Part shown: positions 1,249-7,770 of the stretch, piece by piece
Position numbering within the stretch: position 1 is the first letter of the stretch
Layout of the letters: each line of letters opens with the position of its first letter
Sequence record: SRR9188676_834
Reading direction: 5' to 3' (one strand)
DNA: 40,704 nucleotides
The notes under the pieces: generated by a model
Database searches by the model: none
What the model saw: the letters and a program-made list of their open reading frames with translations, nothing else
Told to the model about the DNA's origin: nothing
Made by a program: the position numbers and the translations under genes

Positions 1249-2160
1249 TTAAATCTTAAAGCCGATTGTATCTTTTAAAAATGCTTTACTGATTTCTGCT
1301 GATTGCAAAGGAGTGCGAGTTTTCTCAGGCACGCCGTCTAATTCTACAATTGCCCATTTTTTATAGTTAATCTTTTGAAGATTATCAAAGACCGCTTTCA
1401 AATCTACATTTCCTTGTCCTAATTCTACAAATTTATAAGCTTTAGGATCATTAGGCTTATCTGCCAAAGGACTCTTTACATCTTTAATATGCAATGCTCC
1501 AATGATGTCCTTATATTGTAAAACTGCCTTTGCAGGAATACCTCCTCCTTGATGATAATGAGCAACATCCAATAATAATTTTATGTATTTAGGATTCATC
1601 GCCTGTACAATTACATCTACTTCTTCGGGGGTTTCTCCTAATTGGTGCATGTGATTATGATACACCGCTTGTACTCCTAAATCAGCCGTTTGTTTTCCAA
1701 TCTCATTCATAACGAAAGCCAAACGTTTTAACTCCTCGGTTGTTGGCAATCTATCTTTCGGACGCACAGAATTAGTTAATTGAATAGCGTTTCCACCCAA
1801 CGCTTTTACAAAACTTGCATGAGCTACGTGATAATCAATTGTACTTGCTTCTTTAGCAGGGTCAATCTCAACATTTCCACTAGAAAACATCGCTAAAGAC
1901 AAACCGTTAGAAGAGATTACGTCTTTCAATTCTTGTACTTTGGTTTTATAGGTATCATAGGCATTGGCTCTTAATTGAACACCTTTAAAGCCTAATGAAG
2001 TAATATCTTTCATAGCATCAAGGTCTTTGCCACCCCAAGTAATGGCAGAATATGCTAATTGAAGATTAGGTACTTTAGCCAGACTTTCAAAAGAAAACAG
2101 AGAAGCAGAAGCTAATAAACCTGCTTGATAAAGGAAATCACGACGAGAAATTTCAGACAT
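1249..2160 (-). CDS. Sugar phosphate isomerase/epimerase family (xylose-isomerase-like TIM barrel, IolE-like), Tat-exported
   Basis: SRRDFL twin-arginine signal; YHNH, LLLDVAH, HIKD, FVELGQG, WAIVELD motifs. Confidence 0.85.
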   Translation of the reverse strand: MSEISRRDFLYQAGLLASASLFSFESLAKVPNLQLAYSAITWGGKDLDAMKDITSLGFKGVQLRANAYDTYKTKVQELKDVISSNGLSLAMFSSGNVEIDPAKEASTIDYHVAHASFVKALGGNAIQLTNSVRPKDRLPTTEELKRLAFVMNEIGKQTADLGVQAVYHNHMHQLGETPEEVDVIVQAMNPKYIKLLLDVAHYHQGGGIPAKAVLQYKDIIGALHIKDVKSPLADKPNDPKAYKFVELGQGNVDLKAVFDNLQKINYKKWAIVELDGVPEKTRTPLQSAEISKAFLKDTIGFKI

Positions 2161-2196
2161 TTTCTTAGTTATTTTAGGATATGTAATACTTTATGT

Positions 2197-2204
2197 CAAA
2201 AGTA
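2197..2204 (-). promoter_or_regulatory. Bacteroidota primary-sigma -7 element (TACTTTTG)
   Basis: Matches TAnnTTTG on the minus strand about 37 bp upstream of the 2160 start. Confidence 0.5.
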
Positions 2205-2352
2205 TAAAGCAAGTTTAAACTACTGAAATTCTGAGATTAAAAATAATAGAACTCGCAACGGGAACTCTTACGGTTGTAAGGAGAATAAGATTTTAAAAGA
2301 AAGATTTTGATAAAGTAAAAATTATTGAAAGCTCAAGGCTCAGCACTTAAAG

Positions 2353-3000
2353 CTATAAAGTAACAATTCCTAACTTTATCGCCTCTACAACAATTCCTAT
2401 TCTTGTTTTTACTTTCATTTTATAAAAAGCTTGTTCACGGTAACCATCTACAGTTCTAGCACTACAACACATCAAATCTGCGATTTGATTGTAAGTAAGT
2501 TCTGTACAAGCATGACGAACAAATTCAAGTTCACGGTCGTTCAAACCTAATTCTTTGATGGGATTTTTAACTTTTTCAGGATTCAAGCTCTTTAATAATT
2601 TATCTGTAACGAATTCTGTGTAGTGGAATCCTCTGTTGATAATATTATCTAGAGCCGTTCTGAGTTCAGAAGGTTTACAACCTTTCAGTAAATAACCTTT
2701 AGCGCCATTTCTTAACATTCCGACAATCGCCTCCTCTTTATCGAACATCGAAAGTGCTAATACTTTTACTTCTGGGTAATTATTCTTCAACCATAAAGCC
2801 GTTTCATAGCCATCCATTTCAGGCATATTGATGTCTAGCAACACAACATCTGGAATCATTTTCAATTTAAAGTGCTGAATCAATTCTTTTCCATTACCAA
2901 CCTCGAACATCACTTCAAAAGTTTCCATTTTTTGGACTAAACCTGCCAAAGCATTGGCAAATAAAGTGTGGTCATCTACAATGGCGATTTTGTATTTCAT
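2353..3000 (-). CDS. NarL/LuxR-family response regulator (REC + HTH)
   Basis: VDDH, LLDINMPEMDG, GAKGYLLK receiver motifs; C-terminal LNDRE...TYNQIADLMCCSARTVDGYR LuxR-type HTH. Confidence 0.95.
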   Translation of the reverse strand: MKYKIAIVDDHTLFANALAGLVQKMETFEVMFEVGNGKELIQHFKLKMIPDVVLLDINMPEMDGYETALWLKNNYPEVKVLALSMFDKEEAIVGMLRNGAKGYLLKGCKPSELRTALDNIINRGFHYTEFVTDKLLKSLNPEKVKNPIKELGLNDRELEFVRHACTELTYNQIADLMCCSARTVDGYREQAFYKMKVKTRIGIVVEAIKLGIVTL

Positions 3001-3082
3001 CTTTCAAATCTTAGTGGCTTAAACAAGAGTTGTGAGCGGTCTGACGCAGGGATGACGAATTTTGAGTAGTCGTCTCTACTGT

Positions 3083-3877
3083 TTAAGACAGTAATAACGT
3101 AATTGTAATCTTTGTTTCTTTTCCGATTTCAGAACTAATTTGGCAAGTCCCTCCTATCAATTTTACTCTTCTTTGAATGTTTCTAAGTCCAGCCCCCGAT
3201 TGATTGATTTCATTTTGCTGAATTCTTTCGATATCGAAACCTTTTCCATCATCTTTGATGGTAAGTTCAAAATTTTCGGGACTGTAACTTAAAAGTACTG
3301 TTAAATTTTGGGCTTTAGAATGCTTTAGAGCATTATTTAGAACCTCTTGGGCTACTCTAAATAAAACAATTTCTCGTTCATAACCAAGCGAATACTTTTC
3401 ACCAACAATATTGATTTCAGTAGCAAAGCGTTTTGTTTTACGGATTCTAGCAATTTCGTGCGAGAGACTTTCTTCTAAACCAAATTGTTGTACAAAGTCT
3501 CCATCAAAACTTTTTGTTAGAGCACGTAAATCATTGATAGACTGATTGATAATTTCGTTCGTTTGTTTGATATAACCATCTTTATCATCGCCTTCCTCTT
3601 CCATGACATTCAAATTAATCCTAGCCACAGAAAGCAACTGACCAATATTATCATGCAATTCTTGAGCAATATCCTGTAAAGTCTGGTTTTGGATTTCTAA
3701 TTGAGATTTAAGAATCTCTTGTTCGTAGGCAATTTTGAGGGCTTGCTTTTCTTGACGGTGTTTTGCTTGGCGTTTTTGGAAGAGAATAATAAAACTTACA
3801 ATAAAAGCAGTAAGACCTAAAAAAATAATAGTTCCGAACGCTAATACCAATACTATGTCATCTATCTTCTTTTGCAT
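3083..3877 (-). CDS. HisKA_3-type sensor histidine kinase with a single N-terminal TM helix and no sensor domain
   Basis: IAQELHDNIGQ H-box, QEVLNNALKHS N-box, DDGKGF and GAGLRNI G-boxes; one hydrophobic helix at about aa 8-33. Confidence 0.95.
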   Translation of the reverse strand: MQKKIDDIVLVLAFGTIIFLGLTAFIVSFIILFQKRQAKHRQEKQALKIAYEQEILKSQLEIQNQTLQDIAQELHDNIGQLLSVARINLNVMEEEGDDKDGYIKQTNEIINQSINDLRALTKSFDGDFVQQFGLEESLSHEIARIRKTKRFATEINIVGEKYSLGYEREIVLFRVAQEVLNNALKHSKAQNLTVLLSYSPENFELTIKDDGKGFDIERIQQNEINQSGAGLRNIQRRVKLIGGTCQISSEIGKETKITITLLLS

Positions 3878-4488
3878 GAGAATCCTACAATAAACATAAC
3901 GTATAAAAATATATTAAGAATGGTATTTATATTGAACAAAGGTTTTACTAAATCTGAGTGCATCCTTTCTAAAGTATCAATTAAACCCATTAAGAAAAAA
4001 TTACCAGCATAAAAAGCAAAATTACCTACACTTATCCAAAACATGGGTAGCCTAGCCAAATTAATAACCTCTTCCTTTTGATATAATTCATAAAAATAAA
4101 AAAGAGATAATCCAATAATAAGTAAACACCTTAAAAGAAAATTATAAGGTGTGTCTGTTAAACTCTGAAGGTAAAGAGAGCTAAATGTTGAGAATAAAAT
4201 AAATATAAAAATTGAAAGTAAAGTTAGTTTTTTAGCTATAACACTTTTAAAAGTAGAAGAATAAATATAAGCTATACAGGTGTACTCAATAGGTCCATAA
4301 ATATGGAATAAAATTTGGTTATTCATCTTCAATATCCTATTGATTGTATATCCACTTGTTTCGACAATGATGATAACAATTAATAAAAAAGTAAATACTT
4401 TAAAATAATTTTCATGATATTTTTGATTCTTCAATGAAACAAAAAAGCAAATTATCACAATAATGATATATACAATTTGTAAATACAT
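3862..4488 (-). CDS. Polytopic (about 7 TM) membrane protein, candidate sensory partner of the downstream kinase
   Basis: Highly hydrophobic; overlaps the kinase start by 16 bp; ATG at 4488 (MYLQIV) preferred over the GTG at 4539, which overlaps a hairpin. Confidence 0.8.
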   Translation of the reverse strand: MYLQIVYIIIVIICFFVSLKNQKYHENYFKVFTFLLIVIIIVETSGYTINRILKMNNQILFHIYGPIEYTCIAYIYSSTFKSVIAKKLTLLSIFIFILFSTFSSLYLQSLTDTPYNFLLRCLLIIGLSLFYFYELYQKEEVINLARLPMFWISVGNFAFYAGNFFLMGLIDTLERMHSDLVKPLFNINTILNIFLYVMFIVGFSCKRR

Positions 4489-4537
4489 ATAATCATTTGT
4501 TTTAAAATTTCTCGAAAAATTGATACATAAACATAAC

Positions 4538-4565
4538 ACCTCTACACACTTTTCTGTGTAGAGGT
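4538..4565 (-). terminator. Intra-operon stem-loop (leaky terminator or mRNA stabiliser)
   Basis: Perfect 11-bp arms ACCTCTACACA / TGTGTAGAGGT, 6-nt loop, interrupted U-rich tail on the minus strand. Confidence 0.6.
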
Positions 4566-4586
4566 TAAATCTATATCCATAGCTAT

Positions 4587-5036
4587 TTAGTCTGGTCGTA
4601 ATGTTTTTAACAACTCATATACTTTGCTTGGTGGATGCCCAGTACCATCTTCTTCTCCAAAAATACCTTCTTCAATAATTATCTTTCCAGCAACTATTTT
4701 TTGCACTTTAGTTTTAACAGGATTTAAATCCTTATCAATTGCGAATAAAGCTACTGATATTCTTCCTAAATATTTAACAAAGTAAATTGCTAGCCCTTCA
4801 TAACCAGGTTGCTCTGTTAGTCTTTTGATACTATCTTTATCAAATAAATAAGCTGGATACCTGAAAGCTTTTGCAATAATTTCATTAGATAAATCGCTTA
4901 TCATTACTGCAAGATCCTCTCCACTGTAAGTCTTTCCTCCAATTTCAGGGTCATCAACTTTTGGTATTTCATCTAAGTTATCAATTGTCTCATCATAACT
5001 TCTACTTTTTGTTACAAACAATGTTGCCATAATCAT
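4587..5036 (-). CDS. Hypothetical protein, paralog of 5115-5618; C-terminal EEDGTGHPP motif
   Basis: 149 aa; shares Y..xKxxI, R[IL]S[VI]..[FY][AG][IL]DKxxN and a C-terminal G..xP motif with its neighbour. Confidence 0.75.
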   Translation of the reverse strand: MIMATLFVTKSRSYDETIDNLDEIPKVDDPEIGGKTYSGEDLAVMISDLSNEIIAKAFRYPAYLFDKDSIKRLTEQPGYEGLAIYFVKYLGRISVALFAIDKDLNPVKTKVQKIVAGKIIIEEGIFGEEDGTGHPPSKVYELLKTLRPD

Positions 5037-5114
5037 TAGGGGTTTAAATTGTGAAACGGTTAAATATTTATAGTTAAATTTTATATACTCTTAGTTATAA
5101 AGGCTGGTTGTCAT

Positions 5115-5618
5115 TTATTGATGATTCACAACTGGAGGTTTCCCAATAGGACAACATTGTCCATAATTATCTACTGCTAGAAATGGGTGATTGATATTAT
5201 CAGAATGTTTCCATTCATTTCCATTTTTATCCAATCCGTATACTAGTATTGATAATCTATTATTTACCACTGTAAAAACACATCCAAAGTTTTCTATCTT
5301 GTTTACGGAATTTGTATCCTGTTTTAAAATTTCTTCAATTGCGGCTTTAGGAATTATATATCCTTTAGGAATATCAACTCCCACTTCTGGGTAATCTATA
5401 CGCCAATCTTTAAATCCATTAATCATTTTGGTTGATTCACCTCTACCATAAATTCTATAAGAAAAATTTAGTGTTGAGTTTTCACCTTTGCTATTGTCTT
5501 TCAAACTAGGTACTAACTTCTCTTCCTTTTGTCCTTCTATCGAAGTAGGTTTGAAGTTAAAAATGAGGTTGAGGCTACCAACAAAAATGCCGAGTAATAG
5601 AATCAGTGTATTTTTCAT
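5115..5618 (-). CDS. Hypothetical secreted protein; C-terminal DNYGQCCPIGKPP motif; candidate signal precursor
   Basis: 167 aa; N-terminal signal-like MKNTLILLLGIFVGSL; paralogous core with 4587-5036. Confidence 0.75.
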   Translation of the reverse strand: MKNTLILLLGIFVGSLNLIFNFKPTSIEGQKEEKLVPSLKDNSKGENSTLNFSYRIYGRGESTKMINGFKDWRIDYPEVGVDIPKGYIIPKAAIEEILKQDTNSVNKIENFGCVFTVVNNRLSILVYGLDKNGNEWKHSDNINHPFLAVDNYGQCCPIGKPPVVNHQ

Positions 5619-5742
5619 GATAATTTAAGCGGTTTAAGTTTTAGAATTTGATTTAACTATTTGAAACTACTATTTAATCATCATTTACACAATAGGCATT
5701 TTTACTAAAACCATCAAAATCAACAAATTAAAAGCTTTTTCA

Positions 5743-5789
5743 GGTAAAATACCGTATTTCTACGCTATCAATACGGGGAAAATACGGGG
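5743..5789. promoter_or_regulatory. Phased regulator-binding array: TAC[CG] at 5750, 5761, 5772, 5783; direct repeat AATACGGGG x2
   Basis: Exact 11-bp spacing; overlapping palindromes GGTA-AAA-TACC, AAATAC-C-GTATTT and CGTA-TTTC-TACG. Confidence 0.6.
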
Positions 5790-5888
5790 TTATTTTTTAG
5801 TCTTTTTATACCTTTTTTGATACAAAAAAACTGATAGTTGAATGCTACTTATTTCCACCATGCTAAACCATTCCCCAAAATCTTATGT

Positions 5889-5896
5889 TAATTTTG
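5889..5896 (+). promoter_or_regulatory. Bacteroidota -7 element (TAATTTTG) for the ABC transporter gene
   Basis: Matches TAnnTTTG about 40 bp upstream of ATG 5937. Confidence 0.5.
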
Positions 5897-5936
5897 AAGT
5901 GTTATTGAAAACCACCTCAATATTTCAAACAAATTA

Positions 5937-7694
5937 ATGAGAAAAGAAGAAAAAAGCGGGCAAATATTTGATATACAAATCCTTCAAAGAATTTACAGTT
6001 TCCTTACTCCTTATCGCTTAAGGTTTTGGTCTTTGGTTGTCATCATCATGGTTTCGGCTTGTGTGGTGCCGCTTAATCCATTGTTAATTCGCCATACCAT
6101 TGATAATTATATTGTAGCTGGCAATTATCCGATGCTTGCCAATATGCTTTTGTTGATGATTGGGGTTTTACTCTTACAAGGTTTTCTGCAATTTGTTAGT
6201 GCTTATATGGCTGGTTGGTTAGGACAAACCGTTATTCGTGACATCCGTGTGCAACTATACGAGAAAATACTTTCGCTTCGATTAAAGTTTTTTGATGATA
6301 CGCCCATTGGTCGTTTGGTAACTCGTACTGTTTCAGATATTGAAACGCTTAATGATGTGTTTTCAGAAGGATTAGCGGCAATTGCTGGCGATATTCTGCA
6401 ATTGGTTTTAATTACAGGCGTAATGTTTTGGACAGATTGGCGTTTGACTTTGATTTGTCTTTGTACCGTTCCGTTTATGGTGATTTCCACGTATTTGTTC
6501 AAGGAATATATTAAGAAAAGCTTTAATGAAGTACGCTTGGCAGTTGCCAATTTGAATTCCTTCGTGCAAGAACATATTACAGGAATGAACATTGTTCAAA
6601 TCTTTAATTCCGAGAAATTAGAGTATGACAAATTTCTAAAAATCAACGAAGTACACCGAAATGCACATATTCGTTCTATTTGGGCATATTCTGTTTACTT
6701 TCCAGTTGCCGATGTAATTTTAGCCGCTGGAACAGGTTTAATCGTTTGGTTTGGTTCAAAACAAATTCTTACACATGATATGACATTGGGGACACTCACA
6801 GCTTTTATCATGTTTATGAACTTGTTTTTTCGTCCGATTCGCTTTTTGGCTGACCGTTTTAATACGCTTCAAATGGGAATTGTTTCTACTGAAAGAATTA
6901 TTAAATTGCTAGAATCCGACGAATATGTTGCTAACAATGGTACTTTTAAAGCCGATAAACTAAAAGGAAATGTACGTTTTGAAAACGTTTGGTTTGCTTA
7001 TAATGACGAAGAGTATGTGTTGAAAGATATTTCCTTTGAAGTAAAACAAGGAGAGACCATTGCTTTAGTCGGAGCAACAGGCGCTGGGAAATCATCAACA
7101 ATTAATTTATTAAGCCGTTTTTACGAAATCAATAAAGGTAAAATTTTTGTGGACGATGTCGATTTACAGGACTATGAATTAAATAGTTTGAGAAGTAAAA
7201 TTGGCGTGGTTTTGCAAGATGTATTTTTGTTTTCTGACACAATTGAAAACAATATTACTTTAGGCGATAAAAGCATTACTAGAGAAAAAATCATTGAAGC
7301 CGCAAAATTGGTTGGTGCGCATGATTTTATCGAACGTTTGCCTGATGGCTACGATTACAATGTGATGGAGAGAGGTGCGACGCTTTCTGTTGGACAAAGA
7401 CAATTGATTTCATTTGTAAGAGCCTTGGTTCACGACCCGAAAGTAATTGTATTGGACGAAGCTACTTCGTCTGTCGATACCGAAACAGAAGAAATGATTC
7501 AGAATGCTATCGCTAAATTGATGAAAGGCAGAACGGCTATCGTGATTGCTCACCGACTTTCAACCATTCAGAATGCACACAAAATTTTGGTATTAGATAA
7601 AGGAGAAATCAAAGAAGAAGGTACACACGATGAGCTTTTAGAAAAAGATGGTTGGTATGCAAGTTTACATAAAATGCAGTTTGTAACGGCGTAG
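5937..7694 (+). CDS. ABC exporter, fused permease/ATP-binding subunit (MsbA/multidrug type)
   Basis: Multi-TM N-terminal domain; Walker A GATGAGKS, signature LSVGQRQ, Walker B VIVLDEATS, H-loop IAHRLST. Confidence 0.95.
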   Translation: MRKEEKSGQIFDIQILQRIYSFLTPYRLRFWSLVVIIMVSACVVPLNPLLIRHTIDNYIVAGNYPMLANMLLLMIGVLLLQGFLQFVSAYMAGWLGQTVIRDIRVQLYEKILSLRLKFFDDTPIGRLVTRTVSDIETLNDVFSEGLAAIAGDILQLVLITGVMFWTDWRLTLICLCTVPFMVISTYLFKEYIKKSFNEVRLAVANLNSFVQEHITGMNIVQIFNSEKLEYDKFLKINEVHRNAHIRSIWAYSVYFPVADVILAAGTGLIVWFGSKQILTHDMTLGTLTAFIMFMNLFFRPIRFLADRFNTLQMGIVSTERIIKLLESDEYVANNGTFKADKLKGNVRFENVWFAYNDEEYVLKDISFEVKQGETIALVGATGAGKSSTINLLSRFYEINKGKIFVDDVDLQDYELNSLRSKIGVVLQDVFLFSDTIENNITLGDKSITREKIIEAAKLVGAHDFIERLPDGYDYNVMERGATLSVGQRQLISFVRALVHDPKVIVLDEATSSVDTETEEMIQNAIAKLMKGRTAIVIAHRLSTIQNAHKILVLDKGEIKEEGTHDELLEKDGWYASLHKMQFVTA

Positions 7695-7728
7695 ATTAGC
7701 TTTGAGATGTGAGCGATGAGCTTTCAGA

Positions 7729-7770
7729 AAAATCAATAGGGATGGACAAAAGTCCATCCCTATTGATTTT
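7729..7770. terminator. Bidirectional intrinsic terminator
   Basis: Perfect 19-bp inverted repeat AAAATCAATAGGGATGGAC / GTCCATCCCTATTGATTTT between convergent genes. Confidence 0.85.

Follow-up and report, generated by a model that had tools for sequence, protein, structure and literature searches.

A stretch of 40,704 nt from sequence record SRR9188676_834 (the window; the cassette genes, hairpin and candidate operator described below are on its minus strand) contains a locus that is read here, with moderate confidence, as a copy of a four-part sensory cassette that occurs across the phylum Bacteroidota and has so far gone undescribed. ORF calling found five co-oriented ORFs between 2353 and 5618, which are referred to as A, B, M, kinase and regulator. 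A and B belong to a group of small proteins called tail proteins, M is a polytopic membrane protein, and the last two form a two-component system. In the proposed reading the tail protein would be the dedicated partner of M, and the circuit would regulate itself. The order of the genes is conserved, with the tail-protein/M pair as a constant core that is plugged into two classes of kinase. The tail proteins have in common a domain and a motif at the C-terminus, and the block made up of the tail proteins, M and the transmembrane (TM) helix of the kinase is exchanged as alleles between close strains. The window locus has both defining features: an M-family protein is encoded directly 5' of a sensor-less kinase with a single TM helix, and the upstream genes code for proteins with the shared alpha/beta core and the tail.

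The novelty lies in a two-component system with accessory input proteins that is built from two undescribed protein families. M and the tail proteins have no relative in Pfam, NCBIfam or PDB, and as a constant pair they precede histidine kinases throughout Bacteroidota. A literature search of full texts (supplements excluded) turned up nothing that describes the cassette, M or a CPPxC-tail family, which is no proof of absence. Even if these proteins should turn out to be an accessory sensor or a stress effector, a function would be provided for thousands of 'hypothetical protein' annotations.

M, its kinases and the tail proteins

The gene of M was assigned to positions 3862-4488. Its ORF reaches 4539 if an alternative GTG start is used, and the in-frame ATG at 4488 yields a polypeptide of 208 aa, which is the typical length in the family. 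Of the hydrophobic segments of M five are strong and two weak, and M is probably a 7-TM protein. The ATG of the kinase gene (3083-3877, 264 aa) is located 16 nt inside the 3' end of M, the two genes overlapping. The kinase consists of a short N-terminal stub, a single hydrophobic segment (residues 17-33) followed by a basic stretch, a coiled coil, and the HisKA_3 and HATPase_c domains; it has no extracytoplasmic domain. Its H-box (ELHDNIGQ), N-box and G-boxes are all intact. The regulator (2353-3000, 215 aa) is of the NarL/LuxR type with REC and GerE domains, and its Asp pocket is complete, with the DD, D56, S/T and K positions kept.

The Pfam scan of the five window proteins detected HisKA_3 and HATPase_c in the kinase, Response_reg and GerE in the regulator, and no further families, A, B and M remaining unmatched. 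The best similarities to NCBIfam models were of the MctS/UhpB/LiaS/NarQ type for the kinase and of the NarL/MctR type for the regulator, all far below the cut-offs, and no NCBIfam model matched A, B or M. An earlier note on this DNA, based on the sequence alone, had described five co-oriented genes including a polytopic membrane protein, a sensor-less kinase and a LuxR-HTH regulator, and had remarked on the absence of an AgrB/ComQ-like enzyme. The genes are present at about the positions given there, and the Pfam scan bears out the remark, since nothing beyond the kinase and regulator domains was matched.

An exhaustive search collected 1306 representatives of the M family at E<=1e-3 (over a thousand 50 %-identity clusters). 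Among the 150 matches listed of these 1306, nearly all were stand-alone proteins of ~150-240 aa, and one had 321 aa. The possibility that M is part of a split or frameshifted kinase was ruled out, because a stand-alone M of ~210 aa is the rule. The window protein matched the M-family profile at 4.7e-75, a value obtained with a profile alignment that includes the window M itself; independent support for its membership comes from the 1306 homologs. When 50 members were scanned, no Pfam model was found at E<=0.01 apart from two chance-level matches; at this threshold, and at the level of sequence, M did not match 7TMR-DISM or other known families of bacterial 7-TM receptors either. The best hit in a profile search of PDB sequences (E 0.077) was treated as noise. 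All Atlas neighbours of M are hypotheticals from Bacteroidota, named 'hypothetical protein' in the source. M was present in 84 of 301 genomes of a sample of the window's order and in 19 of 22 genomes of the same family. In a sample of the phylum it was found in 87 of 401 genomes, often in several copies, a frequency that would make M a major unannotated input route for two-component signalling. One large family gave 0/87.

The charge of the M loops is positive for loops 1 and 3, as it is for the C-terminus, and loops 2, 4 and 6 are neutral or negative. The same pattern was seen in three samples (50, 20 and 19 proteins), and the predicted topology is N-out/C-in throughout. E43, E68, N188/N192 and Y196 are conserved in the class to which the window belongs; in our own reading these residues would be situated in the predicted outer halves of the helices. 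The family alignments contain no invariant Cys or His. A peptidase of the AgrB or CPBP type was considered unlikely for M because neither His nor Cys is conserved.

Two further observations concern single groups of M genes. In loci L070 and L071 (genomes G170 and G303) an M subgroup follows a 454-aa gene and has no adjoining kinase or tail protein; M therefore occurs also outside the cassette. In genomes of other classes (e.g. G509, G410, G501, G398 and G414) several M matches contain one in-frame stop (TGA, TAA or TAG), representing either an overhang of the alignment into the upstream gene or a broken gene.

A homolog of the HisKA_3 kinase was encoded directly 3' of M in 27 of the 30 best loci, usually with a NarL-type regulator as the next gene. 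In a wider set M was followed by such a homolog in 34 of 40 loci; 20 of these 40 were already in the 30-locus set, and in one further locus M was not called. The arrangement was seen in all loci from other orders of the class (20/20). In other classes the gene following M coded for a 420-690-aa PAS-HisKA-HATPase_c kinase (7/7 scanned), whose N-terminus consisted of a short stub, a single TM segment and a coiled coil (11/11 read). M thus accompanies two kinase classes: HisKA_3 kinases in the taxonomic class of the window and PAS-HisKA kinases in other classes. The two share only the absence of a sensor domain. Some cassettes form interleaved arrays (T-M-T-M-M-HK-RR, e.g. L085, where T, HK and RR are tail protein, kinase and regulator), and the tail-protein/M pair is doubled also in L073. 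In the wider and the other-order loci no gene besides the tail protein, M, kinase and regulator recurred beside the cassette, the flanking genes elsewhere not having been family-scanned. The genome nearest to the window (G001) carries two further complete cassettes, one on L126 (4271-4558) with a signal-less tail protein of 95 aa and one on L127 (4648-5205) with a lipoprotein tail protein of 185 aa. One cell can thus hold three systems whose tail proteins are differently localised.

The gene directly upstream of M encodes a protein of 83-357 aa without a Pfam or NCBIfam model. The elements common to these proteins in the alignment are an N-terminal helix, a core resembling 'F..d.l..LL.q.g..GiRiY.g ... 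l.lvgvD..G.D', a variable linker and a C-terminal motif. The general form of the tail is [FY][DN]xGx(C)PP(x)C, with a conserved Gly or Gly-Gly just before (C)PP. In the order of the window and in other classes it reads [FY]D[FLM]xx(P)CPPxC, G(K)LCPPxC, CPxxC or GxCC, in many cases with SPLN behind it, and in other orders of the class mostly [FY][DN]xGxxxP(P), without Cys. Several of the longer tail proteins (240-357 aa, in L051, L054, L055, L057, L058, L061-L063, L069, L072 and L075) have an apparently doubled core and a single C-terminal CPP tail.

The tail proteins were collected by position because word-based protein searches gave only six relatives of B, five of A and 22 with a profile of the tail. 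A Cys tail (CPxxC, CxPP or CC) within the last 25 residues was found in 53 of the 77 proteins encoded upstream of M and in 9 of 404 control ORFs from the same loci, a count that is conditional on the proteins having been harvested next to M in related loci. Since the loci are related and were selected via M, a P-value would mean little, but the contrast is still large. The association was also seen from the independent direction: a tail-protein profile run on five whole genomes gave nine matches, and all nine abutted an M gene. Of the four M loci of these genomes that had no profile match, three contained divergent or two-domain tail proteins and one was situated beside an unrelated 454-aa gene. 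The linkage of the small proteins to 7TM and kinase genes, which the earlier note had put forward as a point on which its proposal would stand or fall, thus held in the genomes examined, and the same gene order recurs across the phylum. The distance between the tail-protein gene and M was <=30 nt in 51 of 77 loci (hand count).

The window contains two tail proteins. A (5115-5618, 167 aa) has a hydrophobic N-terminus (residues 4-20), which could be a signal or an anchor, and its C-terminal end is DNYGQCCPIGKPPVVNHQ, with the tail DNYGQCCPIGKPP fitting the family motif. B (4587-5036, 149 aa) has no signal sequence; its tail EEDGTGHPP, in which G133 and P135 are invariant among B homologs, is followed by a short helix, and the motif Cys has been lost. 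The closest homologs of A and B bear Arcicella names, which places the window in that genus (Cytophagales, Bacteroidota). For the suggestion that the two are paralogs, direct comparison gave weak support (BLASTP E 0.01 over 43 residues; profile-profile E 4.5e-4, probability 33 %), and both align into the wider tail-protein family.

An AlphaFold2 model of B built from a 49-row family alignment had a pLDDT of 74.5, rising to ~90 in a four-stranded core with flanking helices; it superseded an earlier model built from seven sequences (pLDDT 56). No fold could be assigned, the best matches to the model being VIA-align Z 3.3 among 48,161 chains and Foldseek E 0.17. A profile search of the tail proteins against PDB sequences found at best an IpaH LRR (E 0.0063, 20 bits), which was treated as noise. 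The dN/dS ratios were 0.25-0.36 for B, 0.15-0.18 for A within one type, 0.13 for M, 0.05-0.11 for the kinase core and 0.03-0.06 for the regulator. A and B are therefore genuine genes under purifying selection, and their evolution is faster than that of the other cassette genes. An export signal (hydrophobic or lipobox N-terminus) was recognized in 14 of 19 tail proteins from other classes and in 8 of 20 from other orders (7 with a lipobox). In the order of the window it was seen in 2 of 38, the remaining 36, including B, lacking one, so that with A and B the window holds both kinds.

Alleles and promoter of the window cassette

Comparison with G001 revealed a hypervariable block. The two genomes are 94-98 % identical in DNA sequence on both flanks of the cassette, and there is no match between ~3739 and 5511, a block (3739-5511) that comprises the part of A beyond residue ~36, B, M and the N-terminal ~45 residues of the kinase. 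Residues 1-36 of A are 100 % identical to those of the G001 protein and the rest of A only 18 %; the identity is 18 % for B, 25 % for M and 20 % for kinase residues 1-45. The kinase core, the regulator and the neighbouring ABC gene are 94, 99 and 100 % identical, respectively. The G+C content of the block is 0.24-0.32, as against 0.33-0.39 in the flanks. Genomes G012 and G020 share the B/M/kinase-N type of the window, and B-type genes were found in only three of 25 genomes of the genus (plus one weak match). From the alleles of G012, G020, G001 and the window it follows that B, M and the kinase TM helix travel together in four genomes, with A assorting independently. A contig from a metagenome has its break at the same A|B junction and continues into sequence of the A2 type (the A type of G001), the same mosaic as in G020. 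Across 52 loci the co-variation of M with the kinase N-terminus was modest (partial rho 0.15, reached by 8 of 300 permutations). Near-identical Arcicella strains with alternative specificity blocks offer a natural experiment for asking if gene-encoded signals are in use in diderm Bacteroidota.

Upstream of A the sequence CCCCGTATT occurs twice (5781-5789 and 5770-5778) with a spacing of 11 nt, and downstream of these direct copies there is an inverted AATACGG (5752-5758). The whole (5752-5789) is a candidate operator. The pattern CCGTATT-N22-AATACGG matched once in the window and in none of 100 shuffles of it. In three Arcicella genomes of ~6 Mb it was found once per genome, each time at the A promoter; as a control, the pattern written backwards matched G001 once. 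The inverted pair is kept in G001, G020 and G012. The phased promoter repeats noticed earlier are therefore present in the window, but as a conserved feature only the inverted pair survived the comparison: the second direct copy is not kept in G012, whose DNA is 80 % identical here.

The hairpin that had been noticed after the small genes was also found. It is located between B and M (4538-4565), has 11 pairs and a T-rich tail, could act as a terminator or attenuator, and is the sole terminator-like site between 2200 and 6000. It is kept in G020, kept with a compensatory stem change in G012, and missing from the G001 allele. A scan for sigma-70 promoters returned fewer matches than shuffled sequence, the sigma-70 model not being meaningful for Bacteroidota. 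Rfam models gave nothing relevant in 2000-6200, and a PADLOC scan gave no match at the locus.

Divergent from the cassette lies an ORF of 585 aa (5937-7694), which on reading of its translation resembles an ABC exporter (permease plus ATPase). It is 96-100 % conserved beside the cassette in four Arcicella loci and is not found in the cassette of other taxa.

Proposed mechanism and alternative explanations

In the sensory-cassette reading M would serve the kinase as membrane sensor or transducer and have the tail protein as its partner, because the tail-protein and M genes are tightly linked and duplicated as a unit, the pair is attached to single-helix kinases, the helix is exchanged together with M, and M shows modest co-variation with the kinase N-terminus. 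M would receive the signal and could control the kinase through contact with the only TM helix of the latter. The tail protein may serve as a protein ligand or co-sensor of M, and the flexible (C)PP tail at its C-terminus would probably do the docking. Once phosphorylated, the NarL-type regulator would bind the unique inverted repeat upstream of A and so set the level of A and B, while partial termination at the hairpin after B might lower the level of M, kinase and regulator. In its logic the cassette resembles systems in which accessory proteins act on kinases. In the SpdC-WalK pair, SpdC is reported to be a polytopic membrane protein that controls the activity of a histidine kinase (PMC5854430). 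No sequence or fold relation to SpdC-WalK or RcsF-IgaA was found, and unlike in those systems the partners are here co-encoded and most tail proteins of the order lack an export signal. In the RcsF-IgaA-Rcs pathway the kinase is modulated by a small sensor, exported or a lipoprotein, together with a multi-TM intermediary.

Several observations speak against this reading. The A allele is not tied to that of M, since G020 combines A of the A2 type (92 % identical to A of G001) with B1 and M1, the types of the window. The distance matrices of tails and M gave a partial rho of 0.03, which was reached by 76 of 300 permutations, the tails being saturated. The motif Cys is dispensable, B having HPP and 15 of the 20 tails from other orders having no Cys tail. 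A terminator-like hairpin separates B from M, an arrangement that suits A and B as outputs at least equally well. There is also a paradox of localisation, in that the predicted topology of M is uniform whereas the tail proteins differ in export signals. Finally, the contacts of M with the tail protein and with the kinase are inferred. A complex prediction for M and B (alignments unused, no controls run; score 0.02, mark 0.34) weighs neither way.

The earlier note had proposed a peptide quorum-sensing module analogous to ComQXPA and Agr. ComQXPA of Bacillus subtilis has the order signal gene, kinase, NarL-type regulator on one strand, and the kinase core of ComP is of the HisKA_3 type, like that of the window kinase. 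A regulator with REC and GerE is found here, whereas ComQ, a short prepeptide and a multi-TM kinase are not: Pfam detected no ComQ-like isoprenyl transferase among the five proteins, A and B are folded alpha/beta proteins of 149-167 aa and not prepeptides of ~55 aa, the multi-TM part is a separate 7-TM gene next to a kinase with one TM helix, and the host is diderm. The Agr locus of staphylococci (AgrBDCA) combines a polytopic membrane protein of ~200 aa, a precursor that carries a Cys close to the C-terminus, and a kinase with a regulator, and is divided into hypervariable specificity groups. In the Pfam scan neither AgrB nor AgrD was matched by A, B or M, an invariant Cys or His is absent from M, the window kinase is HisKA_3/HATPase_c and not of the AgrC type, and the regulator is NarL-type and not LytTR. 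The likeness to ComQXPA and Agr is one of logic only and not of family membership, and in the family scans the generic HisKA_3/NarL core is all that the locus has in common with ComQXPA, Agr and the Lia accessory systems.

In its explicit form quorum sensing would require that A and/or B are exported and that the autoinducer is either the entire protein or a peptide cleaved off its C-terminus behind the [FY][DN]xG site, which M would sense from outside, activating the kinase. The regulator would raise transcription of A and B in a positive loop, and the allelic blocks would be pherotypes. We consider this unlikely, although the allelic pattern is what it predicts: the hypervariable block spans the putative genes for signal and receptor together with the membrane part of the kinase, with a conserved kinase core and regulator. 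A similar pattern, in which polymorphism between strains is confined to the signal genes plus the receptor's membrane part, was described for comQXP, where comQ, comX and the 5' end of comP show little conservation (PMC6334282). The operator unique to the cassette's own promoter, the absence of other conserved output genes nearby, the Sec or lipoprotein signals of many family members elsewhere, the putative position of conserved M residues in outer helix halves and the conserved Gly or Gly-Gly before the tail are likewise consistent with a secreted signal. These points are opposed by the lack of an export signal in most tail proteins of this order, B included, and by the absence of a conserved processing or export enzyme among the genes recurring beside the cassette; the adjacent 585-aa ABC gene is an Arcicella-specific context and was not family-scanned. 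Moreover, domains of 100-350 aa that are folded and under purifying selection are unlike short prepeptides, lipoprotein-anchored forms would not be diffusible, and A assorts independently of M. What remains of the earlier proposal is a dedicated cassette with an allelic block that mirrors comQXP; the role of A and B as pheromone precursors is not supported, and a layout of the Lia type fits equally well. In the broadest formulation, to which we assign a low probability, Bacteroidota would own a phylum-wide ligand-receptor system in which a bacterial 7-TM receptor has the encoded protein or its (C)PP peptide as cognate ligand and drives a sensor-less kinase, with the allelic blocks as pherotypes for self/non-self or density sensing. 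Cell-cell communication in Bacteroidota is poorly understood, and to our knowledge no peptide-type quorum sensing has been described in the phylum; if true, the ligand-receptor reading would provide the first such family in diderm Bacteroidota.

The locus might instead be an envelope-stress module comparable to LiaIH-LiaGFSR of Bacillus, with M, like LiaF, controlling an intramembrane-sensing HisKA_3 kinase, and with A and B as induced effectors like LiaI and LiaH rather than as inputs. LiaFSR systems are characterized by a LiaF-family accessory protein and by target genes of the PspA/LiaI type, neither of which is found here. The layout agrees in having a sensor-less HisKA_3 kinase, a NarL-type regulator and an accessory membrane protein just 5' of the kinase. 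The Lia operon has its small target genes first, then a weak terminator, and then the accessory membrane protein, kinase and regulator expressed by read-through, with autoregulation from a single promoter that is the only relevant target (PMC3567932); the hairpin after B and the restriction of the operator to the A promoter correspond to this. The kinase was also scored by LiaS-type model NF052531 (E 1e-20, far below the model cut-off, and one among several models), and the differing locations of the tail proteins are less of a difficulty if these are effectors. Against it, A, B and M match no Pfam or NCBIfam model, hence none of LiaF, LiaI and PspA, and are unrelated in sequence to LiaF, LiaI and LiaH. 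The small proteins stay with M across the change of kinase class, and the pair is duplicated as a unit in L085 and L073. Intergenic distances as short as those counted above leave no space for a terminator in most loci, and a generic stress effector would not be expected to show joint allelic replacement of M, A/B and the kinase TM helix. The stress-module explanation is rated as improbable. Much more remote is a bacteriocin or toxin locus, in which the tail proteins would give rise to Cys-containing antimicrobial peptides, M would confer immunity, and the kinase and regulator would act as the control system. Strain-level polymorphism, the faster evolution of B, the Cys-rich C-terminal tails and the divergent ABC gene adjoining the Arcicella locus would fit such a role. 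It is contradicted by the overlap of the M stop with the kinase start and by the constancy with which M stays with the kinase (27/30, 34/40 and 20/20 loci). Nor is a modification or leader-peptidase gene conserved nearby; the ABC gene lies outside the conserved cassette elsewhere, and PADLOC gave no match.

Flanking sequences

Downstream of the regulator the synteny with loci L009 and L010 breaks (window positions 1249-2245), and the next gene of the window codes for a xylose-isomerase-like TIM-barrel protein (Pfam). In G001 and G020 the regulator is followed by a 244-aa ORF on the opposite strand, and the TIM-barrel gene is on another contig.

Elements of ~35-45 nt at 7695-7770 and 1042-1086 recur with 84-100 % identity at many places in G001, G020 and G012. 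Because they match both strands they are partly palindromic, and their many recurrences make them look like intergenic repeats of the REP type. A 206-aa ORF at 260-880 has a weak fn3 match (E 0.003). Copies with 68-71 % identical DNA are present on two other contigs of G001, and the ORF therefore belongs to a small family of paralogs.

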